From positions 1-64,000 of the forward strand of contig QPGO01000216.1 in the NCBI GenBank assembly GCA_008632985.1: DNA of 64,000 nt, read 5' to 3'. Positions 1,761 to 64,000 of this stretch are shown in pieces (position 1 is the stretch's first letter; each line of letters begins with the position of its first letter). Both the position numbers and the translations under genes were made by a program. The notes below the pieces were generated by a model, which saw only the letters and a list, made by a program, of their open reading frames with translations, did not search any database and was not told where the DNA came from. The stretch comes from Psammoneis japonica. Its lineage: Eukaryota.

Positions 1761-3185
1761 AACATCAAAATAGCCAACAACGGACGCAAAAATTGAATCC
1801 AATGTATTCAAAATTGCATGTGGGTCCCGGTGGCACACAAGAGTTCTCAACAAGGTGCCCACACACCACATCTCTCATGTTGTTGTTGCTTGCATTGCCA
1901 CTTCCATAATGTGGCCTTCTTTTGCTGGCACACGGCAGATGCAAGGGTGGAGCCGCACACCTTTGCAATGGTTCCTCTGGGGATCTCGCTTGCGTTTTGG
2001 GAGACGATGCCATGGGCGATTCTTCTGTCATCACTGCAACAGGTAGAGGAAGGAGAGGTCAATCAAAAGCGCCAGTGGTGACGGGCTCCTTTTGACGGTA
2101 ATTGAGATACACATCTTCGAGTAGGGTGTGATGGGTCGAGCCGCAATGGGAGCTGAAGAGGAAAAAATGGGTTGGTGCCGATGATTCCTGAGCCCGTGGA
2201 AAGCGCACGATAAAGGATATGACTTGCCAAAAACAAGGCTCTTAGCATCTGTTGTTAAGAGCCCAAGTGGTGTCGGGGAGAGTAACCTTCTTGTTGAACA
2301 GCGGTGATGTCAAAAGAGGAGGTCGTCAGAGGCCGTGGTTTTGTCGTGGTAAAAAAATGGCTCCGGAGGGTCACAGCAATTCAGCGTCCGGGTTCCGTCC
2401 ATTGTTGGACTGCTAGAACGCACATGGTCAAGTGGGTGTCCTTGGCCATTGTCAATTGCTTGTGACCGTGGAAGTGAGTTCATTGGACACCAGTTTAAGA
2501 ACATGGTTGAAGATGACTGTGGCATTGAAGTCAAGCCCACAACTGCACAAAATCCACAAGCAAACACAATTGTTGAATGTGTGCATCAAGCACTTGGAAA
2601 CATGACCCGCGTGTTTGATTTGCAACATGCACCTCTGGACACTGAGGATCCCTTCACTGGAACATTGTCAGGAGTGGCATTTGCAGCACGATCAACACAT
2701 CATGCCATGATGCAAGCTGCGCCAGGACAATTGGTCTTCAATCAAGACATGACATTTAACGTCCAACACATTGCAGACTGGAAGCACATCCAGCAGCATG
2801 AACAAAAAATCACAAATGAAAATGATGCTCAAGAGAATGCTCAACATGCTCCTCACACATGCAATGCAGGAGAAAAAGCACTGCTTGAACAAAGCTCCCA
2901 AAAACCAGAACAGCCATGTGCTGGACTGTGCACAATTGCAATGGCACATGCCAATGGCACAGTGCCACAGATCAAACGCAGTGAGGTCATTGACACTGTC
3001 AATGTCCATTGCATGACGCCGTTCAATGAATGACTCCAATGTGCAATTGGGGAGGCGAATGCAGTGTGCACTGTCATGCACATTTTATGTGCACACACAT
3101 GTGTGCTCAAATGTTGTTTTATGTTCAATTGCACATCAATCATGGGTTCGCATGAAGGACAGAACAATCACACAGAGTTGATTGG

Positions 3186-4566
3186 GGACACACGGCAATT
3201 CGTCTCACTTTCTGACAAAACCATCCAAGGTCCTGCACGCTTGTCAAGGATGACCCATTTGAGTGAAAATTTTTCAGCAAAATGACCGTTGAGGACAAAA
3301 AATTGATTGTGCACACATTCGCGTGCAAAGGTTTGTGTCAATGTTGCCAACTTGCATGTGCATCACTTTGTTTGGCAAGCAAGTCTTTGTTCAGCAATTT
3401 GTCTCAGTTTTGAAGTAGAAGCATTTTGTTGTGAGACATGCGGCGGATGCAAAATTTTGTTGTCAAAGACAAACAACAACAAACGACAACAAACGACAAC
3501 AGATGGAGACAGACAGAGACAAACATGCCAGTGTCATCGTACATTGCACATCTGTCTGTCCTGTCATCGAACGATCCTCATCCATTGGTTTAAGAAGCAG
3601 AGAGAAATGGCAAGCACAGACGGCATTGAGGATGGATCGTCTAGATGAGGCATTTTTTTAATTAGCTCGTGATTTTGCAATTTTCTCACACTTCGCCCAT
3701 GTTGTTTTGCGATGCCTCTGAGCACCCCCAAACACTTGTGAATGTGTCCAGCCCCCATCAGGGCTGTTAGACCTACATGCAAACTACACATTTCAACCTT
3801 CAAACGCCAATTGTCGGATTTGGTGCAGTTGTCACATTCGACAAACTGCTGTTTTTTGCCAAAATTGCACTGCTTGTGAGAGACAAGCCACAACTTTCCA
3901 GGAAATGCCGAAAATTGGTGTTTGACTGGGCATGGACATGTCTGCAGTCGTCAAGCTAAAGATCGCACATGGTCACAACCATCGCCAACACATTCTATGA
4001 TGTCTTTGGAAGGGACAAAGTTCAACCTGTCACTGAAAATATTTTGTTGGCGAGTGTGCGCATCCAGCATGAGAAATCCGGGTTTTTTCCAAAGAAACAT
4101 GAGCTCGCGCGCAAACAGACCTCATTTGGATGATCCATCCTCAACACGCAGCAGCAGTTTCAATTTGCAGCTTGGTGGGTGCCGGTGTCATTGTGCATCG
4201 CACATCTGTCTGTCCTGTCATCGATCAATCTGCATCCATTGGTTTGTCTCCATCTGTCGCCGTTTGTCACCGTTTTTGTCTTCATTTGTCTCTGTTTGTC
4301 ATGGACAAAAAAATTTTTGTCGTCATTTGTCATCAACAACAAAGATTTGTTGTCAACAACAAAAAGAGAATCAAACAATTTTGTCTCCACGACGAAAAGA
4401 GAATCGCCAAACAATGAAATCGTGTTGCTGAAACATGTTGAAATTAACAGTGCATGCGTTGAATTTTAAAGCATTGATTGCATTTTCATCAAATGCATCT
4501 GTTTGTCGTGAATTGTCCACAACAAATGATCAATGTCTCGCACTGATTTCAAAATGCCGTGTGTCC
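3186..4566. mobile_element. Non-autonomous TIR element inserted in the gypsy LTR; probable 3-bp TSD (tgg/cgg), possibly Harbinger-like
   Basis: TIR ggacacacggca...tgccgtgtgtcc; removing it restores the LTR sequence gagttgatcggatgtcg; internal (gacaa)-rich inverted low-complexity arms. Confidence 0.75.
3630..4140. mobile_element. MITE family M1, copy 1 (~510 bp), TTAA-derived TSD, Kolobok/piggyBac-type target
   Basis: TIR ggatggatcgtctagatgagg / cctcatttggatgatccatcc; flanks ttga and tcaa; inverted second copy at 32122-32629. Confidence 0.9.
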
Positions 4567-4824
4567 CGGAAGTCGAAAATTGCAAGTGCAATTGCTTGAC
4601 AATGTTGACATCTCATGTGTCAATGGCAATCGCATCTGGACAATCTGTTGTCACAAATGCATTTTCCGAAAGGCCCTTCAGTCTGCAGGGCCAGTGCAAA
4701 AGCTTTGGGCCATTGAGAACTTGTTCAGAGAATCCCCAAATGATTGGGTAAAATGTGATCTTGCAATTTTCACTTTTGCACTTCACTCTACTTTCGTTTG
4801 TGCTTGTTCTTTGAGCACAGTGCA

Positions 4825-5198
4825 GGCCATGACTGGGAAATTGGTGACAACCCGGAACTCATCAAATTCATTTGTTTGGTTGACAATGATGAATGTGAGG
4901 AAATCCTTGCCTGCAGCGACATCATCCATCACATCAAGCAAGAAGACAAAGACACCACTGTCTGAAAATTCTGACACAGTTTCACAAGAAGGACCATTGC
5001 AACCTCATGACCCCTCTTGGAAAAGCTCAAGCCACCAAATCATGCTTGAATGGGAAAGTGGGGAGGTCATGTCCAAACCCCTTGCCATCGTTGCCAAGGA
5101 TGATCCTGTCACCTGTGCCATCCATGCACGTGAGCATGGCCTGCTTGAAGCTGATGAATGGAAATGCTTTCACATGACAGCTCAGCATCAGAAGAAGC
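4825..5198 (+). mobile_element. Ty1/copia (CoDi-like) pol fragment, continuing at 17731
   Basis: MLEWESGE..PLAIVAKDDPVTCAI matches the copies at 25850 and 41452. Confidence 0.85.
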
Positions 5199-8100
5199 TG
5201 CACTGTGCTCAAAGAACAAGCACAAACAAAAGTGGGGTCAAGCATGAAAAGTGAAGATTGTGAGATTAAATTTTGCTCTGTGATTTTTGGTTTCTCCGAA
5301 TGAGTTCTCAATGGCCTGAAGCTTCTGTGCTGCTTCTGCAGACAAAAGGCCTTTCAGAGAATGTGTTTGTGACAACAGATTGTCTGGATGTGATTGCCAT
5401 TGACACGCAAGATGTCAACATCATCAATCGATCGTGTTTGCAATTTTCGACATCCGATCAACTCTGTGTGATCGTTCTGTCCTTTGTGCGCATCCACGAC
5501 TGTGGTGCGATTGACACACAAATGACACCTGATTGTCAATGTGCACACAACAGTCGCACACTGCATTCGCCTCCCGAATTGCACACAAGAGTTGTTCGTC
5601 AAGTGGAACAATTCGACGGACATTGACATTGTCAACAATGTCTCCATGTCAACTGCATTGTGCCATTGGTGATGACTGTTGTTGTTGCATTTAGGCCAGC
5701 ATGGGGCCGTTTCAATTTCCAAATGTCTTTCGAGAGCATCATGGTTTGTCTCACGCTCCACGTGAATGTGACGCTCTCTGTGTGTGTGCATGAATGTGTT
5801 GCAGTGTTGCGTCGAGCATTCTCTGTGACATTGTTTTGTTCATGTGGACACAAGGACCAATTGTCCTGCTGTTCTTTCATGGTGTTGATTGCACACAACA
5901 TTTTGCCCCAGTGCTCGATGTACAGTGCGCACTCAATTGGCGTTCATTTGCTCACTTGTGGATTTCGTGCAGTTTGGTGGGCTCACTTTGTGTGCCACAT
6001 TGCTCTGCGGCACCACCACTTTTCTTAAGTGGCAATTAACGATGGTCAAGGACACGACCATTTCGTCTTGACAGTCAATCCTGTGATGGCTGTATGAACT
6101 CCATTGTGGATTTTTTGCACTCCAACCATTTATCAGTTGGTTTGTGATTGTCACTTGGACGTTTCTTTTTGACACACCGGCGTTATTTTGTCATTCCGAA
6201 GGCACTGCTTTCGTGCACTGAGTGGACAAATGTCCATTTTTCACACAGCAGGTTGTTTTGTTTCTGAATCTTTGGCACATCTCGTGCGTCGACATGACAA
6301 CATTGTTTGTGTCTTGCCTCGTACATTGTGCGTTACAACCGTATGGGTGTCATGAGATTGTCTTTTGCCAGTGTGAAGTGGATGCTGTAAACAACATCGC
6401 ACTGCACACCAATCTGCCACAGGGTTTTTTTCTAACCGTCCTTGTGTAAGACGATTTTATCCTTGTGACATGAGCATTTTTTTGATCTCGCTCGCCTCCA
6501 CGAAAAGTGTTCGTATGACATGTCGCGTCCGACAATTTGGAGGGAAATGTCTTTGTCCCGTTTTAATGGCAGGACATTGTCGCAGGATTCAATTTTCTTT
6601 GCAGCAAGTTGGCTGATCGTGTCGATCGACAGTGTCGCGACGACGTTCGCCTTGCCCTCGATTTGTGTTATTTGGGGACTGAAGTTTTCTGTTGTAAGTT
6701 GCCAACGTATGACTTTGTCCGTTGTGTCTTATGATCCACATGTGTGCAACAATCTGTTGGCCAAACAGTGTGTGTTTCAGAATTTTGTGACTGTTTTCAC
6801 TGTGGACAACAGTTCTTTTTTCCGTTGCAATGCATGATGTTGAAATTCGTGCATGATGACAATGTGATTTTTGATTTGATGCGCTCCATGTTTTCGGTGA
6901 CTTTTCGTTCCGTACTTGCACTTTTGCCATTTGACCTTTGTTGAGGTGAATCTGGCTAGCATTGCACAGGAGATCATTGAGACTGCATGTCTCGACAGTG
7001 GCGACGTGTGACGACGAGATGTCGCAGTGTTCTTTGCATTTTTCTCGTGTTGCGATTGCTTGAATCGCCTCCATTTTCTTTGCAATCGAATGCATGTCGT
7101 TGCGCATGGAAGTCTTGACATTTTATTTCAAGTTGAACAGTGAAGGACTTTTGTTGTCAACCTTCTAAGCAACTGTTCCAGTTGATTGAATGCCGCACCA
7201 AGCTGTCACTTGCACAGGTGATGTTTTGAAGTCACTTTTTGTCAGGCATGAACGATCACATGTGGTCGTTCTGACAACTTCAAACCTGTTGTGAGTTCAC
7301 TCATGTGTTGTTTAAAAACATCTGGGGCTCTGCAGCTTCTCACAGGAAGTCCACAGCACTCATTTTCTCCCCACGGCATGATTTTCATGTTGGCACGACA
7401 TTTGTTTCTTTTGTTTGATGTGACAGTGTCCCACATTCAAATTGAGCAAGGTCGCACATGTGAACCCTTTTCTGGTTTCTGAAGTGTGTCCTGAACATTT
7501 GGTGGAGGATGCGGCACACGCACTGGCCTCTTGTTCAGTTCACGAAAGCCGGACAGAAACCGAGCTTCGACCATTTTTCTGTTTTTTAAAGGTTGGAGCT
7601 GTCCATTCAGAACAGTTCATTTTCCTTTAGGACTTTTAGCTTACAGAGCCTTTCAATCTCCTTACAAGTTGCCTCCAAGGCTTGTAGAAACAGGAAACCT
7701 TTTGCGTGGTGCGGTTTCGCGCCAGATTTCACTGCGAGGTTTTCTGGTCCACTCGCCCAGAGAACCATTGAAAAGAGATTTGAATCTTTTCAAAGGGAAG
7801 ATCAATTGCTTCTGCTCCTGTGGAGTCAGATGAGTTGCCGCAGCTGTCACATCATTGAGATTAGAAGCATGACAATGTGAGTCGAGGACCATTGGTTCCG
7901 TCATTGACTCTGTTCACGGCGTCACATTTTTCAATGTGATCGGCATTCAGCTGGAAACATCGGCTTCGAAGAGTGGTGCACTGTGCTCGAAGAACGAGCA
8001 CAAACAAAAAGCAGAATCAAGTGTGAAAAGTGAAAATTGTGAGAATTGTTTCTGTGCAATCATTTTGGGTTTCTCCGAACAAGTTCTCAATGGCCTGAAG

Positions 8101-8386
8101 CATTTGTGCTGTTCCTGCAGACAAGAGGCCTTTCGGAGAACAAGATCGTGATGACAGATTGTCCGGATGCGATTGACATTGACACACAAGATGTCAACAT
8201 CACATCGCACGATTGCATTTGCATTTTTCGACATCTGATCAATTCTGTGTGATTGATCTGTCCTTTGTGCCAACCCACGATTGATGCACGATTGAAATGT
8301 AAACTCATTTAATGTGTGGACACACACACATGCAACGCACATGACACAATGCACACTGCATTTGCCTCCCCAATTGCACATTAGAG

Positions 8387-11300
8387 TCAGTCGTTAAACG
8401 GCGTCATCCGATGGATGTTGACAGTGTCAATGACGTCACCGCGTTTGATCTGTGCTGTGCCATTGGTGTGCACCGTCGTCATTGCATGCGGTCCAATGCA
8501 GGGCTGTTCCAATTTCTGCGAGTCTTTTTCGAGCAGTGTCTTCTCTCCTGCTCTGTGCACATGAGGAGTGCACCAAGCATTCTCTTGAGTGTTGTTTTTA
8601 TTTGTGATTTCTTGTTTTCCCTGCTGGATCAATTTCCAGTCTGCGACATGTTGGACGTTAAACATCATGTCTCTGTCAAAGACTGATTGTCCAGGTGCAG
8701 CTTGTGCAGCAGTGTGATGCACAGAATGCACTGCAAATGCCACTGCTGACAACATTCCAGTGAAAGGATCCTCAGTGTCCAGAGGTGCATGTTGCAAATC
8801 AAGTGCATGGATCACATTTCCCAGTGCTTGATGTGCGCGTTCAACAATTGTGTTTGCTTGTGGATTTTGTGCAGTTGCAGGCTTGACTTCAATGCCACAA
8901 TCATCTTGCACCATGTCTTTAAATTGGTGTCCGATGAACTCACTTCCACGATCACAAGCAATTGATGATGGCCAAGGGCATCTGCTTGACCATGTTTGTT
9001 CCAATGGTCCAGCTGCAGTTGTGGATTCCTCATTTGGAATTTCTGCAACTTCAAACCATCCGGTTGCCGGATCAATCATTGTCAAACACTTCAGGACTGG
9101 GGGTTCTTTCTCCCCTTTATGACACATTTTGTGTGGTCCAACAAGATCCACACACAGTCGTTCCCATGGCACTGATTCTGTGCACTTGGGAGGTAAATGT
9201 CCACATTTTTTGTGTTTCTTTTTGAATTTCTGGCACGTCTCACATTTCGACACGTATTTTCGTATGTCTTCATGCAAGGCAGACCACCACAAGTGTTGTG
9301 AGATTGTTTCTTCTGTTCGATTTGTGCCAGGATGAAGAAGGTGCACATGACACCAATCTGTCACTGCTTTTTGTAACGTCTTTGGAATGACGATTTTATC
9401 CTTGTGACATGTGAGCAACCGGTCTCGCTTGCCTCCACAAAAAGTCTTCGTGTGAAAGGTCTCATTGGACAATTTGGAGAGAATGTCTTTGTCCCGTTTT
9501 TGTTCAGTGTCGAGAACTTTGTAATTTAACGGAAAGACATTGTCGCAGGATTTTGGTGGGATTTTTTCAGCCAACTCTTCTGTGCTGAAGTTTTCCACAG
9601 AGATTGTTTTTTTCATGGTAAGTCAGCTGATCGCATCTGCGACAATGTTCGCCTTGCCCCCGAGATGTGTTGTTTTGGGACTGTGTTCTTCTGTTGTTAG
9701 ACGCCAACGCATGACTCTGTCCGTTGTGAAGTTTTTGCATGTGAGATTTTTGTGATCCATGTGTGCATTTGTCGGTTGGCCAAACAGTGTGTTTCGGAAC
9801 TCTTTTAACGTCTCCACTGTGGACAATGGTTCTTTTTCCATTGCAGCATGACGCGTCTGCGCTCCATTCAGCTTGTGGCTGCAGAAGGCAATTGGTCGGT
9901 TGTTTCTGCATGATGACCGCCCCCAATTGAGACTTGCTCACATCGGCATGTGTCTCAAAGGGTGCGCTGAAATTCGGATGTGATGACAGCATGTCTTTAG
10001 AGATGATGCGCTTCATGTTTTTGAAGGCTTTTTGTTCTGTTTCGGTCCACTGCCACTTCACTTGGGTTGAGGTGAGTTTGGCCAAAGGAGCTAGAACATG
10101 AGATCGTCGGGGCCACATGTCTTGACAGCAGTTGATCACACCGACAAAGCGTCGCAATTCTTTGTGAGTTTTGGGTGTTGCGATCGCGTGAACAGCTTCC
10201 ATTTTTTTTGGTGTGGGACTGATGCCATTGCGGGTGACATGAAAGCCTAGATAGTCTGCTTCGGGTTCATCAAAAAAAGACTTTTCAGCATTGACTTTCA
10301 ATCCGGCTTGTTCAAGGCGTAAAAACACCATCTCAAGCTTCTTGAGGTGGTCTTGAAAATCACCTTTTGCAAGGCACAATGTGTTGTCAATGCAAGTTCT
10401 GACAAACTCCAGACCTGCCATGAGCTCACTCGTGTGCTCTTGAAAAACATCTGGAGCTCCACAGATTCCCATGGGGAGTCCACAGCATTCATGTTTTCCC
10501 AAGGCATGACAATCATGCACAAACGACGTGCATGCGGCGTCAATTCAATGTGACAGCATCCCACATTTAAACCAAGGGATGTCGCACACATGAAACCTTT
10601 GAGTTTCTGTGGCATGTCCTGAATGTTGGGCAGAGGAAATGGTGCACGTGTTGACCTCTTGTTCAGCTCACGAAAGTTGGACAAAAACCAAACTCGACCA
10701 TTTTTCTTGGGTTGGACAAAGGTTGGAGCTGCCCATTCAGAGCAATTTGTTTTTCTTGGGACTTTTAACTTGCACAGTCTTTCAACCTCCTTTCAAGCAG
10801 TCGCCTCCAAGGCTTGTGGCAAGGGAAATGGTTTGGTGTGACACGGCCTCGCACCGATTTCAACTTTAAATCCACCGGTTTCCCGGTCCATTTGCCTGGA
10901 GAACCATCAAAAAGGTTTTCAAACCTCTTTGAGAGGAAGTTCAACTGCTTCTGCTCTTCTGGAGTTAGATGAGTTGCTGCTGCTGCAACGTTGTTGAGGT
11001 TGGCAGCGTGACAATCTGAGTCAAGGATCCGATTGACCCTGTCATTGAGGCTGATCACGGCATGAGATTCCTCAACATGATTGGCAATCAACTTGAAAAC
11101 GTTGGCATCGAAGAGTGCATCAACATTCTTCATGGGCACAGTTGCATCCTCCCATTTGATCTCTTCATTTGAGAAGCCTGACACCATTCCAAGACTTGAC
11201 ATTAAGTCGCGTCCCATGATCATGTCACAACGACTCAAAGAAGAAGGGGTCTTGTCAACATGTGCCGTTGTTTCAATCATCTTGTGTTTGTCAAATTCGG

Positions 11301-11586
11301 GCAAGGAGAACTGGATTTTGCGCCAACTGTCAGTTGTAAAGTGCCCTCCTTTGGTTTCCCAGATTTTGGTGGCGGATGTTTTTGTTCTGAGTTTCTACAT
11401 GAATTTGCGCAAAATTGTGGTTGACGATGTTCCGCTGTCGAGGAGAACGCGCGGAGGCTTGTTTTTCGCTTTTCCCAATGAGGCATTCACATGAGCGACG
11501 ATTGCTGGACTAGTGTGAGTTATTTTGGCCCTTTTTCCGGGCTTCCTGACATCCAGTGACGCGCGAGACTCCTCTTGCGGTGCGAG
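8387..11586 (-). pseudogene. pol: Gypsy pol (protease, RT, RNase H, integrase), frameshifted and TA-mutated
   Basis: LDSG protease; RLPMG-like/VRTCIDN RT; DVSKSQLGAV RNase H; HLLHPG..C..C and DRGSEF integrase. Confidence 0.92.
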
Positions 11587-13135
11587 TCATTCCTCAGAAT
11601 CACTGCGCGTCAATTTTTCAAACTGACAATTTTTCTTGTCAAGAGCATCAGAGTCAGAATCATTGCTCTTGCACTTTCCATCTTTGTTCGAAGAGCTCGC
11701 CTTGAGTGTTTTCTGAACTGCCTGGACTGCCATGGCGTTCAACTCTTCTTTGCGAGCGGCGTTGTCATTGTCGCTACGCGACCACGTGCGATTGCCATTT
11801 GAACGGCGGACGTGTTCCAGCTCTAGGTGGGACCTCGCACTGCTGAACTGTGACACAATTATTTTTTATCATCCGTCGTATGTTTCGCACGCACATTTCT
11901 ACGTGTTCTGTTGTAAAAAATTGTTCCACACTGCCTGTTTTGCAAAGCCAAAGGCTTTCTGTTATCTGCACTTGTGTCAATAAAAATGCACTGGGTGTGT
12001 TCTTTAATGTCTAAAGAATGTACCCGGGCACACTGCATGTGTTGTGCTTCAAGTGTGGAGGAGGAGATACGTTCGCAAAATTGCCTCTTTTTCTGTTGGC
12101 GATCATTCACATGTCCATCGCTCAATGATTTTACTGCGGAGCTCGCACGTAGAATTCTACGGGCCCAATGTCACAAAAAGTCCCACCTAGGACTGGAACC
12201 CGTCGGCATCGTTTTGGATCACGTTCAGTGTTTCCACGACGTTCTTTCACTGGTTTCTTGATCGACCAGCATCTGTCCGCACCATGAGTGGATTTTTTGC
12301 ATGGAATGCACCACTTGTCGGACTGGGATTTTTCGGTGCCATGTTGGTGACCATTTTTGGAACCAACCATTCTTGGCTTTCGATCCAGCACTGCCACTGG
12401 GATCAGCCTTGGCATGAATGCCATCGAATGTGTCCTCAGCGACCTCCAGGCGCTCCAGAAACTCAACCAACTTGTCGCAAGCATGTTTCAAAATTTCGAA
12501 ACCTTGGACAGTCGACTGACACTGCCACTTTCGAGGTGCAAGATTGAAGAGGATGTCCTTGAGTTCGTCCTCCTCCATCTTCTGATCCTCTGCGAAAAGG
12601 GAGGACAGAACTTGAGGTCTTCGTTGACTTCTTGGACCCAAGCAGCGATTTCGCATGCTTTCATGGACTCTGGCTTCTTGAGATCACGACGCAAGTAACG
12701 TTTCTGAATCTGAAGTGCGTTCTTGGGAAACACATGCTGAGTGAAATGTTGCAGGCATTTCTCGAAGCTTCCTTTGGCAGATTTGTTTTCAACATTCATC
12801 GCCCCATTTTCGAAAGCACACAGAGCATCTCCTTGCAACAACACACGCATGAGACGGAACTTGTCAGATTGCTTCTTGATGTTCTGACCCACTGGAAGTT
12901 GATCGCAGCTCTTTAAAAATTCGATGCACTTGGGAACACCCTGCTTCTTGCAGTGCTCGACATTGACCATGTGGGTGCGACTGTCCTTCTTCTCGGGATG
13001 AAAACACTGCTCCATCTTGAGATGCTGGCTCGGTTTGAGCGTCTTTGGCTCGGAATTCGATTCCAACGGCTGAGGAACGATTTTCTCCTGCCTTGGCGAA
13101 GTCTTGGCGTTAGCAACTTGAGGTGAAAGCTTCAT
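11587..13135 (-). pseudogene. gag: Gypsy gag, interrupted by a MITE and frameshifts
   Basis: Homologous to 19042-20196; CX2CX4HX4C knuckle CIPCKKSTHGADRC. Confidence 0.85.
11809..12204. mobile_element. MITE family M2, copy 1; 4-bp TSD ggcg/ggca
   Basis: TIR gacgtgttccagctctaggtgggac / gtcccacctaggactggaacccgtc; absent from the gag copy at ~19975. Confidence 0.85.
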
Positions 13136-14287
13136 TTTTCGACTTGTCACCTTCTGTGGTGTGCACACACAATGCACTGTGCTCAAAGAACGAGTGCAAA
13201 CGAAAGTAGAATCAAGTGTGAAAAGTGAAAATTATGAGAATTATTTCTGTGCAATCATTTTGGGTTTCTCCGAATGAGTTCTCAATGGCCTAAAGCATTT
13301 GTGCTGTCCCTGCAGACAAGAGGCCTTTCGGAGAATAAGATCGTGACAACAGATTGTCCGGATGCGATTGACATTGACACACAAGATGTCAACATTGTCG
13401 CATGATCGTATTTGCATTTTTCGACATCCGATCAATTCTGTGTGATTGATCTGTCCTTCGCACGAACCCACGATTGACGCACGATTGAAATGCAAACTCA
13501 TCCAACACACAGATGTGAGATGTGCACGTGCATGTCGCACATGACAACGCATGTTGCAGTGGATCAACATTCTTCATAGATGCAGTTGCTTCTTCCTCTT
13601 TGATTTCTTCATTTGCATGGTCCAATGTGATTTCAAGACTGGACATTAAGTCGCGTCTTATGATCACATCACATGGACTTGAAGAAGAATTCTCATCATC
13701 AACACACACTGTTTGAATGTCAGCACGTCTTAAATTCGCACAGTGAGAACTGAATTCGGTGTTTACTGTCAGTTGTAAAGAGCTCACCCTTGGTTTTCCA
13801 AGTTTTTGGTGGCTGATTCTTGTGTTCTCAACTTTTGCACGAATTTGCGTAAAATTGTGGTTGACGATGTTCCGCTGTCGACAGGAACACGCAGATGCTT
13901 GTTTTTCTCCTTCCCCAAGGAAGTGTTCATATAAATGATGACTCCTGGACTAGTGTGAATTATTTCTGCCTTTTTTCTAGGCTTCCTAATGTCCAGTGGA
14001 GCAAACAATTCGTGAACAGACCCAAATTGTTCTTCGGATTCACTCTGGATCATCCGATTAAATTGGCAATTTTCTTCACTGAGGGCATCAGAATCCAATT
14101 CTTTGCCCTTGTGCTCTTTTTCTTTGTTCGAGGAACTCGCTTTGAGCATTTTTTTTTTGAACTGTCTGATCATTCATGACGTTCAACTCTTTTTTGCGAG
14201 CGGCATTTTCGTTGTCACGCCAAGTGCGATTGCCATTTGAACGCGCCGTTTCGGATCACGCTCAATGTGTCCACGGCATTCTTTTGC

Positions 14288-28458: not shown

Positions 28459-28469
28459 CAGTCACTTGC

Positions 28470-48925: not shown

Positions 48926-49639
48926 TGCCCGATGGTGCCAGACAGTTGTAAAGCAGCGTTGTTAATTTGACTGTTGCTGACATTGTGAGAAGAACTAGAT
49001 GAGATTCGGCTGCTCCGAAAGCTTGTAGAAAAGATGCTGAGAAACCATGTGGAAATTGACAGAAAGCAGAATTCGGAAGACATCTAGAAGACTCTGGAGA
49101 CACAGAGATCTTTCTAGAAAGTGTCATCTTTGACATGTTTGACATCTCGTTGACACTTCTTGACATCCACGAATGAACACACAAATGAAGCATGGATGAC
49201 CATGACACTCGGCACTCGCTTCCCCAATTGAGGCATTAAAAGACAGGGTGAAGATGACTGACATTGATCCGCTCAGTGACGTTGGGTGAGCACTGGATGG
49301 CAACGGTTCCATTGGTGTGAACACGGACAATGCGGAAGGGACCATCTTTGGCATTGAGTTTGCATTGGACGTCTTTGGTCATGACAAAGACTTGATCGCT
49401 GACATTGCAACCATGAGTGAGATGTTTTGTGTTCTCATGGACATTGTTGCGCAGGACGTCATGCTTGTGACCGGAGTTAATCATCTTTCAATTGGCAAGA
49501 CAAGCAGCAGAAATGACCATGTCTTGACCAAAAACGACTTGTCCGGGAGATGACATGAGGGCAGCATGATGAGTGCTGCACAAGGCCCATGCAACAGATT
49601 GCAAAATGCCGTGGATCATGTCCTCGTCACAATCACGTG
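48926..49639 (-). mobile_element. 3' remnant of another gypsy family (integrase end, PPT, LTR)
   Basis: SPGQVVFGQDM, GPFRIVRVHTNGTV...ERINV; PPT ttggggaagcgag. Confidence 0.8.
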
Positions 49640-52600: not shown

Positions 52601-55600
52601 GTACGAATGTCTTTTCAGAACTTTCAACGATTGACAATGGTGGTGATGCGCTGCAAGCGCTGCCGAACGATGAGAAAAGTAATTTCGTCAAAAACAGCTC
52701 TCTCTGTGCATGTCAGCACGAGATTGAGAACTCCAGATTCAATGCGCTCGACACGGAAACCGCAGATGTCGCGTTTCGTGAGCGATTGGAGCATCTTATT
52801 TAAAAATTCATACATTACCGGTGAGAAAGATACTGACACCGATGACTGCCAAGAAGCAGTACTGTAAACTACGCGAAAATAGTAGTTTAGATATGCCAAA
52901 CGGCCTAAGACAAAATGTGTCTACAGAAAATGACTTATGACACTGCCTATGGTATATTTTCCACGTCTCCGGGACGTAGAATGGACAAGATATTTCTGCA
53001 AGGCCTATAAATGGCCTAGAACTAATGCTCATGTATACTGGACATACATAATTCTATGCGCAGTATCACGCACACGTCATTTAGTGACACTTAAATGTGA
53101 GAATGACCGTACAGTAGCGAAGATACTAGCTGCTACGTAAAATGAAAAAGGCCGAATAGTACGTCAGACGAAAGGCCTACACAAAGAATGACGCGCAGCA
53201 AGAATGACTGCATGCGCTGATATTTGGATACGAGACGTTAATTGATATAACGCTCGAAGGGTTCAACGGAAAAACCCATAATGCGAGAAAAGCACATACA
53301 CACAGGAGTACTGTACACACATGCTCTCCTCTACTATGTAAAAAAATGCTGAACGAGCCTTTATGTGACGAAACGCTCGAAGGGTGAAACGGAACACCCC
53401 AATTTATGTGATAAATCACGCGCGTAAAAGTCAATATGCTCAAGAAAATCAGAGTACTTAACCGCTCGTGGGCTGCAGACCATTCGGTTTAACTGACTTC
53501 AACGACGCCAACGGACAAGAAGAATGCCGTTTCGAAAGGCCGAATATGGATATGACACTTCGGCCACAAAAATTGTAAAAATCATAAAAATGCTCGGAAA
53601 AGGCATAAAAATGCCCAAAAAAGGCATGCAAACTTCAAAAAACAACCCGAACTGGCGTAAAAAGAGCTTTATGACGAAAAGCCCGCCATTCAAATGCAAA
53701 TTTGATGCGTTCTTTCCGTGAAGGTGAAAGAATGTGACATGAGCAAAAATTTTTTGCTTTGTCTATTGCCTGTCAAAGACAGAAGGGGTGTTGCCATGAC
53801 AGAAAGTGGAGCCTGATCAACTCTGCAATTGTGTCGATGCGCCACCTTTTTTTCTTTTTTTTTTTGCCCAGGTCGAACTCCATCGTGGAACGCGCACATC
53901 AGACGATTGGAAACTTGATGCTGCCATGCCGGCACACGTATGTTCTTAGCACAGCACTCCGAGCACAAGACATGGAGTTAGACGAAGATGACCCTTGGAC
54001 TGAAACTTTCTGCCGTGACCTTTGCTGACGTGTTCCAGCCGCACGTGAACCAAATCGTGCACAAAAATGACATTTGCGCGATTTTTGCGCGGTCCTTAAC
54101 TTACAATCGAACTTTCACCACCAAAAGTATAGATTTATACAAACACAAATGTTTTGCAACACTAACAAGACTCGTGTGAGTGTTGCAATGTCATTGTCAT
54201 TGTGCCATCTGTGTTTTTCATTGCGTGAAAAGATTCGTAACACAACGGATGATTTTCGGCGAAAACATTGCCGTCATTTGGATGTCACCCAAATGTGTCT
54301 TTCTACGATGCTACTTGGTAGGTTTTCTACCTACAAAAAAATCTCAGCACAAATCTGCTGACGTACAATCAGCACTGAGTCTGCTGAGGAAGTTCATGAT
54401 GCATGTCCCATGAGGATTTGAACACCCCTCAAAAAACTGTTTAAATGTTCATACTTTAGAAGCCTGTGAAAGTCAATCCGTCTAAGTGTTTTTATTAAAA
54501 TGCTCTGTACACTAGAACACACATAAATTGTGTTCAAAATCCGATTGTCGTTTTGTGCGTCACCTGGGACTGGAACACGTCTGCTGCACGTGCAATTGCA
54601 CAGACCACTGCCAAGGCAACTCCGATGCAGTTGGTCTTCGGATGTGATGCAACATTGTCTGTTGTCTTTTGCAACAAGTGGAGGCATGTCTCGGACAGAA
54701 TTCAGAAAATGTTCCGCTCAACAGACAAGCATGAGAATCAAGCACGAACAATGGACAAACAGTGGCACCGACAATTGTTGTGCAGGGCCAGCTGCAGTTG
54801 TTCAAGTCAATGAAAATGTCATCCTTTGTGTGCAAGAAGGTACACTGGTTTTTTGGACACAACAAAAAATGTCCTTTTCCAGCAGTGGGACCCTTCTGTC
54901 ACTCATACGACCTTGTCACAGGGGCGAGTGCAGCAGGCATCCCTGCTGTGGCCGCCGATGATGCCACTTTCCTGCATCTGCAGGCTGTCCGCAGCGACGC
55001 TAATCCCGCAGAAGTGCGCATCAGGAAACGCGACTCTCAGTGCGAGACCCACGAAGGGCTACGGGAGTTCCACACAACTGAGACCGGCACGACTGGCCAT
55101 CGTGCACGTGACTCACTTTGCATGAAGGGACTGCGCAGGATGCACGCAGCACCGAGTGTGATTGGTTCCACACAGGGACTGAAGACGCGGCATGTCTTGC
55201 TGTTGCGTGCACACATGCTCTGCATAAAACAGTCTCACAATTTTTGTAACACACGAATTGTCAACCTCTTTATGACTGAGCACTTGTGCCCTGTTTTTGC
55301 ATGGGGCAATGGACAGCTCCAACCTTTAAAAAATGGAAAAATGGTCGAAGCTCGGTTTCTGTCCGACTTTCGTGAACTGAACAAGAGGCCAATGTGCGTG
55401 CTGCATCCTCTGCCAAATGTTCAGGATGTGCTTCAGAAACTAGAAGGTTTCGTGCATACGACCTCAGTTGATTTGAATGTGGGACACTGTCACATCAAAT
55501 TAAAAAGGCACATGTCGTGCCAACACAAAATCATGCTGTGGGGAGAAAACAAGTGCTGTGAACTTCCCATGAGAAGCCACAGAGCCCCAGACATTTTTGT

Positions 55601-57484: not shown

Positions 57485-60400
57485 TGCAGCATGCGACTGT
57501 TGTGCACATGTTTATGATTGCACATTGTTTGTGTGTCAATCGCACCACAGTCGTGGATACGTACAAAGGACAGAATGATCACACAGAGTTGATCGGATGT
57601 CGAGAATTGCAAATACGATCGATTGACGATGTTGACATCTTACGTGTCAACAGCAATCGCACCCGGACAATCTGTTGTCACGAACATATTCTCCGAAAGG
57701 CCTTTTGTCTGTAGAAGCAGTGCAGAAGCTTTAGGCCATTGAGAACTCGTTCGGAGAAACCAAAAATCACAGAGTAAAATTTAATCTTATAATTTCCACT
57801 TTTCGTACACTGTTCTAAAATTTTTACTAATGTGCCTTTGTAAATTCTTCTACAAACAGGGACGAATCGCATCAGTTCTGCTAGAATCGATTTCCGAGCG
57901 GAAGAAGCTCAATCCGAGCAGTGCCTCAAAATGGAATGCTGTTTTTCGTCTAGCAAATGACAAGATTCGTTCTAATACGGTCTGTTCCAAGCATCCAAGG
58001 ATCAAGGACTCTACAAGTGCACCGCATTGTCAAAAAATCTACACCAAGTCATGGTTGCAGAGAGTGCAAGTCCCGAGTCGATCAGATCCAAGAAATGCAT
58101 CTACTTTGCAAGGAGAGACTATTGGAGAGTTTTTTGAGACCGAATCGACGAGCCTCGAGTCCAAAGAGCAAGAGGGAACCGTTCAAAAGTACCTCAAGTG
58201 TCTCATGTCTCATGTCTTTCCAGGAATTGCACTTCAGAATCAGAGTTGTTATTTTCGAAACGATCTGAAGAAACCAGAGCTGCTTAACAGCAAGAAAGCC
58301 TCTGTTAGACCCAAGAGGTCAATGAAGAGCGTCTATACGACCCTTCAATGGATTCTAAGTTGAATCTAGCGGGAAACCGAGTCGTGAGCTATCAGCCATC
58401 ACTTGCACCGCAAGGATGGCAGCATCAGTCTACTGTCCAAAACAATCAACTGTTGCAACTCATCCTTGATGAGCTGATTAAGTTTTGAGTCATCTAAAGG
58501 TCGTTCATGACGTCCGTGACGAAAAAACATATCAACTCAGGCTCTGACAGCAAAGTTGATTCCAAAACCAAAAAAGGTTCCAAATTTGGTTCCCAAAATG
58601 GTCTCCCATGTGGTGCCAGAACAATCCAAAGTGAATGCAAGGTCCAATCTTTGAAAAAAGAACACCTACATCACGGATTGAAGCTATTCTAAAAATGAAG
58701 TAGCGAAAGAACGCCGTGGACACATTGAGCGTGATCCGAAACGGCGCCGTTCTAATGGCAATCGCACGTGGCGTCGCGACAACGAAAATGCCGCTCGCAA
58801 AAAAAGAGTTGAACGTCATGATTGATCAGGCAGTTCAAAAAATACTCAAAGCAAGTTCCTCGAACAAAGAAAAAGAGCACAAGGGCAAAGAATTGGATTC
58901 TGATACCCTCAGTGAAGAAAATTACCAATTTGATCGGATGATCCAGAGTGAATCCGAAGAACAATTTTGGTCTATTCACGAATTATATGCTTTACTGGAT
59001 ATTAGGAAGCCTAGAAAAAAGGCAGAAATAATTCATACTAGTCCAGGAGTCATCATTTATATGAATGCTTCCTTGGGAAAGGAGAGAAAAAAGCATCTAC
59101 GTGTTCCTATCGATAACGGAACATCGTCAACCATAATTTTGCGCAAATTCGTGCGAAAGTTGAGAACACAAGAATCCGCCACCAAAAACTTGGGAAACCA
59201 AGGGTGAGCTCTTTACGACTGACAGTAAAAACCGAATTCAGTTCTCACTATGCAAATTTAAGACGTACTGATATTCAAACAGTGTATGTCGATAATACGA
59301 AATCTTCTTCAAGGTCGAGTAATATGATCATGGGACGCGACTTAATGTCCAGTCTTGTAATCATATTTTAGACTACGCAATTGAGGAAATCAAATGGGAA
59401 GAAGCAATTACCCTATGAAGAATGTTCATACACTCTTCGATGCCGATGTTTTCAAGCTGAAAACCGATCACATTGAAAAATATGACGCCGTGAATAGAGT
59501 TAATAACGGAACCAATGGTCCTCGACTCACATTATCACGCCATCGATCCTAATCAAGTGACAACTACGGCGATGCATCTAACCCAAATGAACAATCTTCT
59601 TCTTAAGAGGTTGAAATCTTTTTGAAAAGTTCCTCAGACGAATGCATGGGAAGAACCAGTGGATCTCATCGTGGAAAATCTGACGCGATTCCACGACGCG
59701 TGAGAACCTTCTCCTATCATAGTCTTTGGAGGCATCCAATCAAAAGGAATTTGACCTATTATGAAAGATTGAAGTCTTAAAAAATGAAATTACTCTGAAT
59801 CAGTCGCTCTGAGACTCATTGTCTAAAGAAAACAGGTCGAGTTTGACCGCATCCGACACTCAGAAGCTTGGTAAAAGGTTCATACACGTGGTGTATCCTT
59901 TACTTAATATTCAGGAAATGCTGTTGAAGCAAGAACGTTTCATATATGTAATCTATTTGATTCAAACATGGAATGCCACCATGTCAAATAAAAAAAAGGC
60001 ACACGTCGTGCTCACACGAAAATCATGCCGTGGGGAAAAAATGAGTGCTATAGACTTCCAACGAGAGGCTATAGAGCCCCAGATATTTTTATACAACACA
60101 TGAGCGAACTCATGGCAGGTTTGAAGTTGTCAGAACGACTATAAATGATCGTTTGTGCCTGACAAAAAGTGACTTCAAAATATCACCTGTACAAGTGACA
60201 GCTTAATACGGCATTCAAACGACTAGAACAGTCGGTTAGAAGGTTAACAACAAAAGTCCTTCACTATTTAACTTGAAATAAACTATCAAGACTTCCATAC
60301 GTAACGATATGCAATCGATTACAAAGAAAATGGAGGCGATTCAAGCAATCGCAACACGAGAAAAACGTAAAGAACTCTACGACATCTCGTCGTCATACGC

Positions 60401-60788
60401 CACTACTATCGAGACATGCAGTCTCAACGATCTCCTGTACAATACTAGCCAAATTCACCTCAATAAAGGTCAAACGGCAAAAGTACAAGTACGGAACGAA
60501 AAGTCTCCGAAAATATGGAGCGTATCAAATCAAAAACTATATTGTTATCATACACGTATTTCAATATTATACGTTACAACGGAAAAAAGAACTTTTGTCC
60601 ATAGTGAAAACACTTATAAAATTCCGAAATATACTGTTTGGCCAACAGATTTATATATATACGTATCACAAGACACAACGGACAAAGTCATACGTTGACC
60701 ACTTACAATAGAAAACTTCAGTCCCGAATTAAATACATCGAGGGCAAGGCGAACATCATTGCGGTAGACGCGATCAGCTGACTTACTA
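57485..60788 (+). mobile_element. Degenerate gypsy family B, copy 3; 3'-truncated, largely TA-retaining
   Basis: LTR from 57485, then gag-PR-RT-RH collinear with copies 1 and 2. Confidence 0.88.
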
Positions 60789-61235
60789 TCCCCCATGAAC
60801 AAATCCGTCTGTTTTCCGACCGATGGTGCCGCACACGGCACCATAATCGCCACCGTAGAACAACACTGAATTTGCCGTAGAGAATCTTTCCGTTGGAACA
60901 ATTTTCGATCACTAAAACTGCCTCCGACAATTCACCTCCGAAGATGAGGTGATGCCTTCAGATGTGCCCGAAAGCTCTGTCAATGAAGAACACTGCGTGC
61001 ACATTAGTTGTTCAGCTTCCAAGGAATGAATGCTGAATCAATTTTGAACGGGGCATTCTGTTTCGCCTGTCAAGGGAGACGAGTTCAGCGGTCTCGATTT
61101 CCGATCGCTTGCACTCGGCGTCTTGTGTCTTGCTCCGAGCACCAAGCACCAAGTTGCACTTGGAACATAGAACGACAACAACAAGACAAGCCATTGCATC
61201 AAGGTTTTTGAAATCGCGAGTGCCTGAGTGTTGCC

Positions 61236-64000
61236 ATGAATGGATTGTCAGTTGATTTCATTCCTTCATTGGAGTCGGATTGGTTGCATTGCTACGAGGA
61301 GAAAACGGATGTTGCTTTTTCCGAAGAAGATCTTCATTTGTTTCTTGATTCCATGCAGGACAAGCACTCGACGGAATCAACACAGAACCGTCCAACGTGG
61401 CATGCAGATGATGACTTTGGGAAAGATGTGAAGATGCCATTTGGCGAGGCCCGTGCAGAGGTGTGGAAAGCAGCAAAAGACGAGACAAAGGGGTGCAGAG
61501 CGCGGGTGCAGAAAATGATTGGGAAAAGTTTTGACGAAGTCAATGATCCCATCGAAGATCTTCTTCTCTTGTACATGGGGAAGTCAAGTCCATTGATGCA
61601 GTTGCTGCAATCAGAATGTGCTTTGTCTTTTGAAGAGACCGCATCTTTCATGTCTACATGTTGCACGCAAAAAGCACACGGATTCTCGGTTGATCGACTG
61701 CACGACGGCAAGTGCGACAGACTCGACAGGTCTGGGTTGATGGACAAAGAGAAGCACAAGGCAGTTTGGAAAATGATTGGCAAATCACCTTCAGAAATGG
61801 CGGCACGTAAAAAGACAGCTTTCTGGGAGAAATTCCAAGATCGGTTCAATGAGTTGTGTCAAAATGTTAATGTGAGCAACAGTTTGAATTTGATTGCATC
61901 TCTTGACGATGATGAGAAGAAAGCTGCGGTTGACAATGGTGCAGACATGCAGGGTTTAAAGCAAGTCGTCCACACCGACAAACGCAAAGGAATCACAGGC
62001 CACACCGCAGTGTCTCCCGCCACACTTCTTGCTTACGGTGTTTGTTGGGAGCAAGAGGGCGACACTGCATGCGACTGCCACGTAAAGCTTGTTAAAAGAA
62101 TTTTTGGCAATAAACCTGTGCTTGACAGGGTTGCTTTTTGTTCTGACCGTGGCCATTGGACACTTAAGTTGCTTGTCTGTCTGTTGGAGAACGGGGCTGA
62201 AGTTCATGGTGCGGTGCGTCATCAACATTGGTGTCAGTTTACCTGCAATCAAGATTTGAAGACAGGTGACCCGCGGACATTGATTGACAAAGTTGGGCCA
62301 TCGACTCTTTGCACTGGCACAGGGAAGGTTGCAGATCGGGACATTTGTCTGAATGCATGTCGAAATGGCACAAATGGCATAGCGCTTGCAATGTCGTCGA
62401 TCATTGGCGGAGCGCATTGGGATTGTGTGCCGATTGAGCCAAAGCAAGTCTCTGCTCGAATTCCATGCGCTTGCAGTTCAGAGTGGCGCCAAGCTCTTAC
62501 TTTTCATCCATTTCTCCTGGACAAGAACAGCAGCATTGATGATGAAACAATGTTGATGTTGGGCAAATTGGGCATCGATCATGTCACTGAGTGTCAAGGA
62601 CATGTAGAATGGCGTGCTGCTCGGAAAAACGCAGTGACCTCATCAGGTGCCAACACACAAGTGTCAATGCAGCTTAAGATTGACAAAGAAAGAGAGCAGC
62701 GACGACCGCATTGGGTTGTCATTGAAGAGCATCTTAGCACTTCGTCGGGCATCGTGGGAGATGAGTCAAACAATGAGGCAAGCAGAGTCTCGCAAGCTGA
62801 TGCTGTGGGAGTGGAAGATGGTCATGTCAACCAAACTGCTGATGGCTCTGAGAACAATGTGGGAGAACAAGTGGGCCTGGAGCACCATTTGGCCGAGATC
62901 GAAAAAGGACTAGATTCTGACATGGACATGGCTGACTTCCAAAAGGACTTAGATTCTGACATGGATGACGATGAACGACTCTTAGCCATTGAAAGCCGAG
63001 TGGATGAAGCAAAAGAGAAGAGAAGGGAGCAGAAAGAGAAAGCAAAGGAGCTGCTGAGTGACGCAGCTGACACGACCGCAAGAAACAATGAGCTGCGTGT
63101 CAAACTCACAGCAGATTTGAAAGCGGGCTTACACAAAAATTTGCTCAAGGACATCACAAAGCAGATGGGATGGAAAGTTCTAAAGACAAGTGGTGGAAAC
63201 TTGAAGAATGCCATTAAATGGCTAGAGGCTTCACTGGCCTCTTGTCCCTTCATTGTGCTCAGCAAACCTCAGCTGCAAGCGAAGTGTCGTGGGTGCATTA
63301 ACAGCACGGCACCGTCTAGTGTCAACACGGTCCCTCAGCTGGTGGCTGTTTTAAGTGGCAAAACTTCTGCACCCGTCGCCTCAAAAGACACTGTGGATCC
63401 AACCACGCCTCTTGAAGCTGCCATTCACACCAACTTTCTTCCTCCGCTTAAAGGCGAAGCAGCAGAATTGTGTAAGACAGGTCATCAGATGGAGCCCAAG
63501 TATGGAGAAGATCTTCTCACCGTTACAAAAGATGGTTTGTCGCTGGAGAATGGTTCTATTTTGTCGGTGGACTGTCTCTTTAGAGCTGGATTGCTGCAAA
63601 AAGAAGGAAGACGACATCAGAAGGATTCTCCAGATTTCATTGCTGTCGCATCCCTTGATGGCGAGCGAATCATCGTGGTTGCGGAAATGAAGGCACGATG
63701 CAAATCGTCAACTGCTGCAAAGGAAAGGAAGCGACTCTCAGAAGTCGGCAACTTCTCCATCATTGATTGCAACTCTCCCAAACTGGGCAAGTGCACATTA
63801 AAGCGATCAGAGGCCATCCAGGTTAGTGTCATTCCATGCAATCAAAAGTTTTTTGTACGGACAATGCTCACAAATGCTTTTCCTCGACACACCATCGCAG
63901 TGCGCCCATCATGCTAGCACTGTCGGAGTCAACTATGTCATGCTTGCCACAGGGGACCGCCTGGGTTTAACTGGCACAGTGGTGATCAGGCACAACAATG
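61236..64000 (+). CDS. DNA-transposon protein: DDE/D-like transposase region fused to a YqaJ/lambda-exonuclease domain; probable intron 63822-63900; runs off the window; probably decayed
   Basis: SLDDD and SDRGHW (DRGY-like); QG..EW..ARK..VTSS, GHQMEP, DSPD, EMK; GTTAGT donor, ctcac branch site and cag acceptor keep the frame open (EAIQ|CAHHA). Confidence 0.7.

Follow-up and report, generated by a model that had tools for sequence, protein, structure and literature searches.

The 64,000-base stretch at positions 1 to 64,000 of contig QPGO01000216.1 of Psammoneis japonica (assembly GCA_008632985.1), called here the window, holds nested mobile elements of the Ty3/gypsy, Ty1/copia, RVT_1-type and unclassified kinds. 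Of the ancestral 5′-TA-3′ sites of these elements, about 85–95% now read TG or CA as a result of A:T>G:C transitions. We put at roughly 0.8 the probability that a mutator specific for TpA has brought this about, acting on the mobile elements in large part after their integration. The earlier note on this DNA, made from the sequence alone, knew of no description of such a process. In this it was mistaken, since the same TpA to TpG/CpA hypermutation is reported, as far as the main-text sections covered go, in a 2026 preprint on Bigelowiella natans, the only account of such a mutator that full-text searching turned up (bioRxiv 10.64898/2026.01.13.699255). According to these sections, 231 of 302 nuclear point mutations in B. 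natans mutation-accumulation lines fell into integrated nucleocytoplasmic large DNA virus (NCLDV) and virophage sequences, 230 of the 231 were A>G or T>C, all at TpA, and mutation proceeded at about 6e-7 per site per generation, in some lines only (Mettrop et al., 10.64898/2026.01.13.699255).

The features of the window are collected in Table 1. A single long terminal repeat (LTR) family contributes 11 pieces by self-comparison, and the little-mutated gypsy-like copy near the end of the window was used as the outgroup for the two gypsy copies, A and B. The open reading frame (ORF) of the RVT_1-type element at 33019–34233 has no Pfam match, and a PDB sequence search with it gave nothing; 4297 library proteins match it at E ≤ 0.001, and RVT_1 was found in 4 of the 6 relatives scanned. 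This element is possibly a non-LTR one. The 901-aa frame belongs to a family for which no Pfam domain was found and for which a PDB sequence search returned only chance-level matches (E 0.14). It has five relatives at 40–48% identity, one of which is a transcript of the diatom Gedaniella (46%), and the family shares the conserved blocks SDWxxxYE, LDDDKKKA, GHTAVSPATLL, FCSDRGYW and YRNGTGG. The window copy extends about 200 aa beyond the ends of its relatives, an overrun that is perhaps due to the loss of stop codons. The names among the proteins related to the window ORFs are "hypothetical", "transposase InsO" and the one Gedaniella transcript. Of 10 ATG-to-stop ORFs of the window none was found in the protein collection, and scanning the window against Rfam and for tRNAs gave no match. 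Of the element classes that had been listed for this DNA before, gypsy, copia and the RVT_1-type element are recovered; the miniature inverted-repeat and DNA transposons are not, as no transposase domain was found by Pfam in the 140 window ORFs scanned.

Table 1. Features of the window, by position. TA and CG values are observed/expected ratios (o/e); IN, integrase; RT, reverse transcriptase.
Feature	Position	Strand	Basis and remarks
Hypermutated tract 1, nested transposable-element fragments	1501..14400		TA o/e 0.03–0.39 per 500-bp bin
Ty3/gypsy copy A	7971..13558	-	Pfam rve, Integrase_H2C2, RVT_1, RT_RNaseH_2; self-BLAST
Copy A, LTRs	7971-8684, 13173-13514
Copy A, IN ORF	8390-9622
Copy A, RT/RNaseH ORF	9570-10544		TCIDN 10397
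Spared island with spliced X2 contigs	14501..16500	+	TA o/e 0.53–0.78; boundary within ~200 bp
Hypermutated tract 2, includes most of gypsy copy B	16501..23000		TA bins
Ty3/gypsy copy B	18631..24944	+	Pfam; self-BLAST; mutated only up to ~23000
Copy B, 5′ LTR piece	18631-19005
Copy B, RT	21303-21680		intact TYVDD 21390
Copy B, RNaseH/IN	21891-23305
Copy B, 926-bp insertion	23306-24231
Copy B, LTR	24233-24944
Hypermutated tract 3, most extreme	25001..29500		TA 0.00–0.17, CG 0.13–0.61
Ty1/copia copy 1	25169..27770	+	RVT_2 26287-26973; HADD 26662; HWGC 27717
Spared host-like gene, Cys-rich secreted protein, signal-peptide-like start	30128..31640	-	split by N gap 30563-31273
Hypermutated tract 4	32001..35000		TA bins and edge counts
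RVT_1-type retroelement, two overlapping ORFs	33019..35018	+	DASDGFN, QGDPL, WHADD (33436)
Spared island, ~0.8 kb, sharp edges	35101..35900		TA 4–16 per 100 bp inside vs 0–2 outside
Hypermutated tract 5	36001..52500		TA bins
Ty1/copia copy 2	40758..43337	+	RVT_2 ORF 41446-43323; HVDD 42271; HWGY 43284 still intact
Spared repeat copy	52801..53500		self-comparison, TA counts; partner copy 45293-45941 mutated
Little-mutated, degenerate gypsy-like copy, many stops	57817..60763	+	TA o/e 0.33–0.85; outgroup/reference
Hypermutated tract 6	61001..64000		TA bins and edge counts
901-aa open frame, unclassified mobile-element-like family	61212..63917	+	DRGHW 62145 where relatives read DRGYW

Over the whole window the o/e is 0.299 for TA, 1.552 for TG, 1.501 for CA and 0.710 for CG, with the remaining dinucleotides at 0.84–1.20. 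The GC content is about 46%, and the single N gap lies at 30563–31273. When the window was scanned in 126 N-free bins of 500 bp, TA o/e was 0.3 or less in 89 of them; pooled, these 44.5 kb have a TA o/e of 0.147, with CG at 0.61, TG at 1.63, CA at 1.59 and GC at 47.8%. TA was at 0.6 or above in 18 bins, which pooled to TA 0.82, CG 1.07, TG 1.25, CA 1.11 and GC 43.5%, and GC in the depleted bins is 4.3 points above that in the spared ones. The spared bins are an internal control, and they put the background TA of this DNA at about 0.8, not 0.15. The scarcity of TA and the excess of TG and CA in long tracts, from which the earlier note had started, are confirmed, and are strong. The thresholds of the B. 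natans preprint were also reused in 1-kb windows, with an approximated Rho that is our own version and not its exact formula. By this approximate measure Rho_TpA was 0.43 or less in 51 of the 62 usable 1-kb windows, and in 29 of the 62 Rho_CpA+TpG was additionally 1.52 or more, with five runs of at least three windows.

To judge from sequence comparison, the ancestral state is TA, and three independent polarisations, by protein homologues, by the LTR family and by the outgroup, agree on it. The motifs quoted previously for this DNA were all found within a few bases of the positions given for them. For instance, the YxDD motif of the RT reads TYVDD at 21390 on the forward strand and TCIDN at 10397 on the reverse strand, within the identical surrounding context MAGLEFVRT..TLCLAKGD. 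Other variants of this motif are HADD (26662), HVDD (42271) and WHADD (33436), and C/HxDD is read in four of the five RT copies. DDYGI at 23081 is matched by DDCGI at 2512 and 8905, the pairs GPYK/GPHK, STYH/STHH and HWGY/HWGC are present, and MGCCHI and DRGHW occur at 21222 and 62145. When the gypsy IN ORF was compared with 120 homologues, 248 columns were conserved at 70% or more, of which 85 are changed in the window. Tyr survives in only one of the 13 columns where it is conserved, the others reading Cys (5), His (2), Phe (2) or another residue (3), and each of the 120 homologues retains at least 9 of these 13. Of the 22 Ile columns 9 are unchanged (4 Met, 3 Thr, 3 Val), and of the 12 Val columns 6 (4 Ala); the kept residues include His in 7 of 7, Pro in 16 of 17 and Trp in 8 of 9. 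Similarly, the 901-aa ORF, set against its five homologues, keeps none of eight invariant Tyr (5 His, 3 Cys) and all ten Trp, and the RVT_1-type ORF, with 126 homologues, keeps one Tyr of five (3 Cys, 1 His). Three unrelated element families together retain 2 of 26 conserved Tyr columns, and the proposal that the replacement of conserved Tyr by Cys or His gives the direction of change is upheld in all three.

The LTR family leads to the same direction. The copy at 24233–24944 has 57 TA, and the other copies of the family have 0–13. At 54 TA sites of this unmutated copy, the 233 cells in the other copies read CA in 38%, TG in 37% and TA in 12%, and both TG and CA were seen among the copies at 31 of the 54 sites. 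The coexistence of both products at one site requires a TA (or CG) ancestor and independent mutations. In the reverse comparison, the TG and CA sites of the reference copy are TA in at most 3% of the cells of other copies. With the outgroup, 125 TA sites could be followed in gypsy A and B. Both copies retain TA at 4 of these; at 48 the two agree in reading TG or CA, and at 26 one reads TG and the other CA. Among the outgroup's 100 TG sites, and likewise among its 149 CA sites, none of the nine commonest classes contains TA.

The sequence context of the change was derived from 12 of 83 self-alignments of at least 250 bp, those in which one copy has a TA o/e of 0.6 or more and its partner 0.3 or less. 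The TA-richer copy was taken as ancestral-like, and the rates were used for context only. In these pairs the A>G rate was highest with a preceding T (0.383), followed by C (0.133), A (0.111) and G (0.070). The rates are unequal among the four contexts, and the earlier claim that the A to G change is confined to A after T is supported. G>A was 0.209 at CpG vs about 0.10 elsewhere, and transversions were at 0.01–0.05. When polarised by the outgroup, with no selection on TA content, A>G had occurred at 8 of 30 TpA and 18 of 287 ApA sites, and at 14 of 204 and 7 of 199 sites in the other two contexts; CpG had changed at 18 of 109. These values bear on a second candidate of the earlier note, errors of a Y-family polymerase during repair in methylated chromatin. 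Errors of the Pol-eta type are A>G changes at WA motifs (WA>WG), and the CpG decay seen in the tracts is compatible with methylation and repair. Nevertheless, the rate at ApA is no higher than that at CpA and 3.4-fold below that at TpA, the outgroup-polarised counts separate ApA from TpA likewise, and strand-coordinated patches are absent, so that a polymerase of this type is a highly improbable source.

The base on the 3′ side also matters. At TA the A>G rate is 0.47 for TAC, 0.43 for TAT, 0.29 for TAA and 0.27 for TAG. Among 571 sites, TA survived at 0.32 in YTAR, 0.10 in RTAR, 0.08 in YTAY and 0.04 in RTAY, and the outcomes are skewed, YTAY going to TG at 0.53 vs 0.22 and RTAR going to CA at 0.48 vs 0.29. 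The process thus prefers a pyrimidine 3′ of the mutated A (5′-TAY-3′). The double change from TA to CG was found at only 1.6–2.3%; a TG or CA site is immune to further change once mutated, which is to be expected if TpA itself is the recognition unit. Alternatively, the thymine and not the adenine could be the damaged base. An enzyme such as a TET/JBP-type dioxygenase would modify T in 5′-RTA-3′ of silenced DNA to 5-hydroxymethyl- or 5-formyluracil, and mispairing with G would give T>C. 5-Formyluracil does mispair with G, and some protists carry 5-hydroxymethyluracil at TpA. The TpA site being palindromic, the counts on context and on strand fit a T>C change before A, favoured after a purine, equally well. 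We regard this route as unlikely: the exact unitigs described below show fixed sequence changes, not the read-out of a modified base, and the only published treatment, in the sections covered, proposes deamination of adenine (10.64898/2026.01.13.699255).

A weaker decay of CpG to TpG or CpA runs alongside the loss of TA. Across the 126 bins the o/e of TA and that of CG are correlated (Spearman +0.66), CG being at 0.61 in the depleted bins vs 1.07 in the spared ones. In the LTR family CpG sites are kept in 50% of the cells and read TG in 21% and CA in 21%, and in the gypsy IN ORF Arg survives in 6 of its 16 conserved columns (5 His, 2 Gln, 1 Cys). The joint depletion of TA and CG would reflect CpG methylation of the same chromatin. 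This coupling, together with the higher GC of the depleted bins, could be taken to mean that no special mutator is needed and that decay of 5-methylcytosine (5mC), combined with GC-biased gene conversion or with selection against TA, suffices. Decay of CpG cannot remove TA, however; gene conversion requires A>G to be raised after A, C and G, and it is not; and the destruction of conserved Tyr codons (2 of 26 kept) is the opposite of selection. The probability that we leave to this explanation is negligible.

With respect to strand, the outcomes at ancestral TA are 217 TG vs 210 CA. Adjacent outcomes are alike in 211 of 415 pairs, vs 205.6 expected within context classes (p=0.30). Strand-coordinated runs were considered and rejected, neighbouring outcomes being at chance level. 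Both strands are mutated equally, site by site, without processive single-strand runs at this saturation. The timing can be read from the two LTRs of gypsy A, which differ at 15 of 37 ancestral-TA positions, 9 of 40 CpG positions and 11 of 265 other positions, nearly all by transitions; among the 18 TA sites shared by the pair, 9 have the same product in both LTRs, 4 have different products, and at 4 TA persists in one LTR. Since LTRs are identical at integration, a large part of the change must have taken place after integration and on DNA. The divergence of these LTRs and the symmetry of the strands agree with the view of the earlier note that DNA, not an RNA intermediate, was mutated.

At this point one has to weigh the possibility that an activity resembling ADAR, or one associated with RT, hyper-edited A to I in the RNA or cDNA of the retroelements and that the edited copies were then integrated. 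Most of the affected elements are retroelements, and the mutated states of gypsy A and B are shared above chance (48 vs 26). ADARs favour a 3′ G, which is disfavoured here. The difference between the gypsy A LTRs at 15 of 37 TA vs 11 of 265 other positions is not accounted for by such editing, nor is the nearly equal yield of TG and CA, which lacks a consistent sense-strand bias. The preprint discussion attributes a 5′ U preference to ADARs, in line with the context found here, yet in the sections covered the B. natans signature arises in integrated DNA during clonal growth (10.64898/2026.01.13.699255). As the sole cause, editing before integration is largely refuted, and we give it very little weight. 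The sharing between 9289–11808 and 19933–22500 suggests, in addition, that a gypsy element was still copied when partly mutated.

The spared islands measure 0.8–2 kb, and their edges are sharp to 100–200 bp. One of them, 14501–16500, coincides with spliced X2 contigs at 14.4–16.3 kb, which have GT..AG joints at 14627/14739 and 14990/15106 and introns of 107–120 nt. No clean coding frame was found in the spliced region (14.3–16.5 kb). Within it, 14300–14640 resembles 14881–15231, an internal duplication. X2 matched almost nothing else in the window, and for 32001–42000 no RNA run was listed; parts of the window without RNA cover were not used as evidence. The islands other than the spliced one are little-mutated element copies, two of which are multi-copy in the DNA run X1; at the island of 35.1–35.9 kb, the only one tested, no terminal inverted repeats were found. 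X1 depth is 167–202 on the spared segments 23406–24231 and 15266–15772, and 29–36 on the exact unitigs over mutated parts. Unmutated segments in many copies beside mutated copies that are unique fit a slow, time-dependent process on resident silent DNA, not a trigger by duplication; the spared element copies would then be young. The designation of the process as repeat-targeted is therefore not supported by the depths of the spared segments, and in B. natans the main target is, in the preprint sections covered, a single-copy viral insert. In gypsy B the switch falls inside the integrase, where TA per 100 bp rises from 1–2 to 5–15 at about 23000. Nearby, an X1 joint 23305/24232 skips the 926-bp unmutated insertion 23306–24231, on which X1 depth is 167–179. 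The switch at about 23000 may reflect recombination with a young copy.

A mutator of this kind would be slow and directed by chromatin, would act on silenced and probably CpG-methylated mobile DNA, and would not be triggered by duplication. Silent, methylated chromatin would recruit it, and the adenine of TpA in DNA would be deaminated enzymatically to hypoxanthine. As for the enzyme, the leading candidate is a TadA/ADAT2-like deaminase, which was also among the candidates of the earlier note; we would rate it at somewhat less than an even chance. No deaminase of the CDA fold was found to be encoded within the window by Pfam scans of its ORFs. For B. natans an ADAT2 homologue is proposed as the agent, and the DNA-editing BjADAT2 of amphioxus is cited there, in the preprint text covered (10.64898/2026.01.13.699255). 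A deaminase in this role would be a naturally occurring editor of genomic adenine, of direct interest for base editing.

The reality of the sequence itself was examined in X1. Unitigs of 258–512 bp at depth 29–36 have 0 differences to hypermutated stretches with a TA o/e of 0.0–0.15, so that the raw-read check that had been called for reproduces the changes exactly, in a sample that is possibly the assembly's own; an artefact of the assembler or of polishing is thereby excluded, though not every artefact. An artefact of another kind would be the misreading of a modified base at TpA in silent chromatin, with TA really retained. The stretch was found in one DNA run, possibly the assembly source, which leaves room for such an error. 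Misreading of a palindromic site, however, would give mixtures of TG and CA and broken unitigs, and the X1 unitigs are exact. The LTR copies differ in which sites read TG, CA or TA, and the changes in B. natans are heritable new mutations, in the preprint sections covered. Misreading is accordingly a far-fetched explanation.

Several points weigh against the reading of a TpA-specific mutator acting in large part after integration. The choice of the TA-richer copy as ancestral is circular where direction is concerned, and the direction rests on the homologues, the LTR family and the outgroup only. The outgroup-polarised rate at TpA comes from just 30 sites. TA is palindromic, A>G after T is the same event as T>C before A, and the damaged base is not identifiable from sequence. 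The youth of the spared copies is our inference, and multi-copy depth was seen only at 23406–24231 and 15266–15772. An assembly chimera may underlie the switch between mutated and unmutated sequence at about 23000 in gypsy B, where X1 depth is multi-copy. X1 may be the source sample of the assembly and hence not independent of it. Finally, the concordance of gypsy A and B predicted from the context bias is about 53% by our own estimate, and the 48 concordant vs 26 discordant sites imply that part of the changes probably came down from an ancestor that had itself been mutated; not every change is then independent, or demonstrably later than integration.

The consequences for coding follow a definite pattern. 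TAA and TAG together amount to 6.5 per kb in the depleted bins vs 27.2 in the spared ones, and TGA to 24.5 vs 18.3. No sense codon can be turned into a stop by the process, TAA and TAG are eliminated, and frames stay open; the window has 37 stop-to-stop frames of at least 200 aa, many of them overlapping on both strands. Inactivation proceeds by missense, from Tyr to Cys or His, from Ile to Met, Thr or Val, and from Val to Ala, and it takes catalytic residues with it, as in the YxDD motif of the RT. Hypermutated tracts with long open frames on both strands can be mistaken for genes by gene callers, and homology searches lose sensitivity, as with the RVT_1-type ORF and Pfam.

Some other features of the window lie outside the mutated tracts or are minor. 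The spared gene for a Cys-rich, secreted-like protein at 30128–31640 has no Pfam match and no protein-atlas match; the atlas yielded nothing usable for either of two queries. Next to it, 29400–29900 is of low complexity: one strand reads poly-Pro, and the other has repeats rich in Arg/Trp or Glu/Ala. The forward strand at 1–591, in TA-normal sequence, resembles XPG_N with a Pfam E of 2e-4, right at the cut-off, and contains an in-frame stop; a search for relatives of this fragment found none. Run X3 consists of records of 42–45 nt with few matches, on transposable-element spots at 11809–11855 and 27819–27861. These records could be small RNAs and are too few to interpret.

Further hypermutated copies are suggested in public data. 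In a set of 80 metagenome loci coding for relatives of the gypsy integrase, TA o/e has a median of 0.78, and the lowest value, 0.19, belongs to contig L018 (1–1518), the next-lowest being 0.57. L018 has CG at 0.04, TG at 1.78 and CA at 1.56, and keeps Tyr in 3 of 9 conserved columns (2 Cys, 2 His); the process may have acted on this contig too. The protein P0274, a library relative of the RVT_1-type ORF, has one Tyr in 396 aa (fraction 0.003) and Cys or His at 4 of 4 aligned Tyr columns, and its residues suggest that a hypermutated copy has been annotated as a protein. A search of the metagenome contigs for the DNA of P0274 found none. It is conceivable, if doubtful, that editing of TpA in integrated mobile DNA is a widespread genome defence of protists, of which the window would be an example from a lineage other than Bigelowiella, with a chromatin-guided DNA adenine editor and a preference for 5′-TAY-3′. 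Were this so, the CpG-methylated silent DNA of every element class would be edited and inactivated by missense without stops, annotations would be filled with long spurious ORFs, and the process would not be a curiosity of chlorarachniophytes.

Among known systems, repeat-induced point mutation (RIP) of fungi is similar in being a transition hypermutation specific for a dinucleotide, which disables mobile DNA where it lies and strongly skews its dinucleotide composition. Duplication sets RIP off within one sexual cycle, and its changes are strand-coordinated. It makes TpA from CpA or TpG and creates stops, whereas in the window TpA is lost and stops are removed, segments present in many copies are unmutated (depth 167–202 vs 29–36), and strand runs are absent. 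A mutator of A:T to G:C at TpA only, limited to mobile or foreign DNA, is thus the mirror image of RIP. Deamination of 5mC also yields TG and CA, and it occurs in the window as the weaker process, but TA sites are beyond its reach, and it cannot change Tyr codons to those for Cys or His. The distinction from RIP and from 5mC decay, made already in the earlier note, is sound; its Pol-eta candidate fails at ApA, and its TadA/ADAT candidate stays the leading one, as a putative agent. The editing by ADAR and APOBEC3 in animals resembles the process in giving clustered, deaminase-type transitions in integrated retroelements, and the 5′ U/T preference of ADAR is mentioned in the preprint sections covered. 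These enzymes edit a single strand, of RNA or cDNA, ahead of integration, and the changes in the window arose after integration on both strands; APOBEC moreover gives G>A, and the change here is A>G.

The likeness to TadA and ADAT2-ADAT3 lies in the strict 5′ T. The target A34 of the tRNA deaminases always follows U33, and TAC, the context of bacterial tRNA-Arg, is the one with the highest rate in the window (0.47). The known members edit tRNA, and to our knowledge chromatin-targeted editing of a genome is not established for any of them.

The closest counterpart is B. natans, and the signature of the window is the same as that measured de novo in its viral inserts, as described in the preprint sections covered. 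Both consist almost only of A:T>G:C changes, only at TpA, giving TpG or CpA by strand. Both are limited to foreign or mobile DNA beside normal DNA, in clusters of TpA-poor 1-kb windows; within this window alone, 89 of 126 bins with TA at 0.3 or less stand beside 18 with 0.6 or more. The B. natans genome has 324 TpA-poor coding sequences, enriched in RT, endonuclease-RT and DDE domains, and 124 clusters of windows poor in TpA and rich in CpA+TpG (10.64898/2026.01.13.699255). The two differ in that B. natans was measured de novo, with viral inserts only mildly depleted (Rho_TpA 0.45), whereas the window is a fossil footprint near saturation (TA o/e 0.15). The targets in the window are gypsy, copia and RVT_1-type elements, and the preprint text covered by a term search contains neither gypsy nor copia, LTR or integrase, its enriched domains likewise excluding integrase and RVT_2. 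Searching the literature for retrotransposons of Bigelowiella brought up nothing of use. The 3′ context and the link to CpG decay are found in the window and are not reported in the main-text sections covered. To that account the window adds the TAY preference, the immunity of a site after mutation, the symmetry of strands without runs, the link with the decay of CpG and the depletion of TAA and TAG stops, and it shows how far the process can go, with LTR retrotransposons nearly free of TA and their Tyr codons almost erased.

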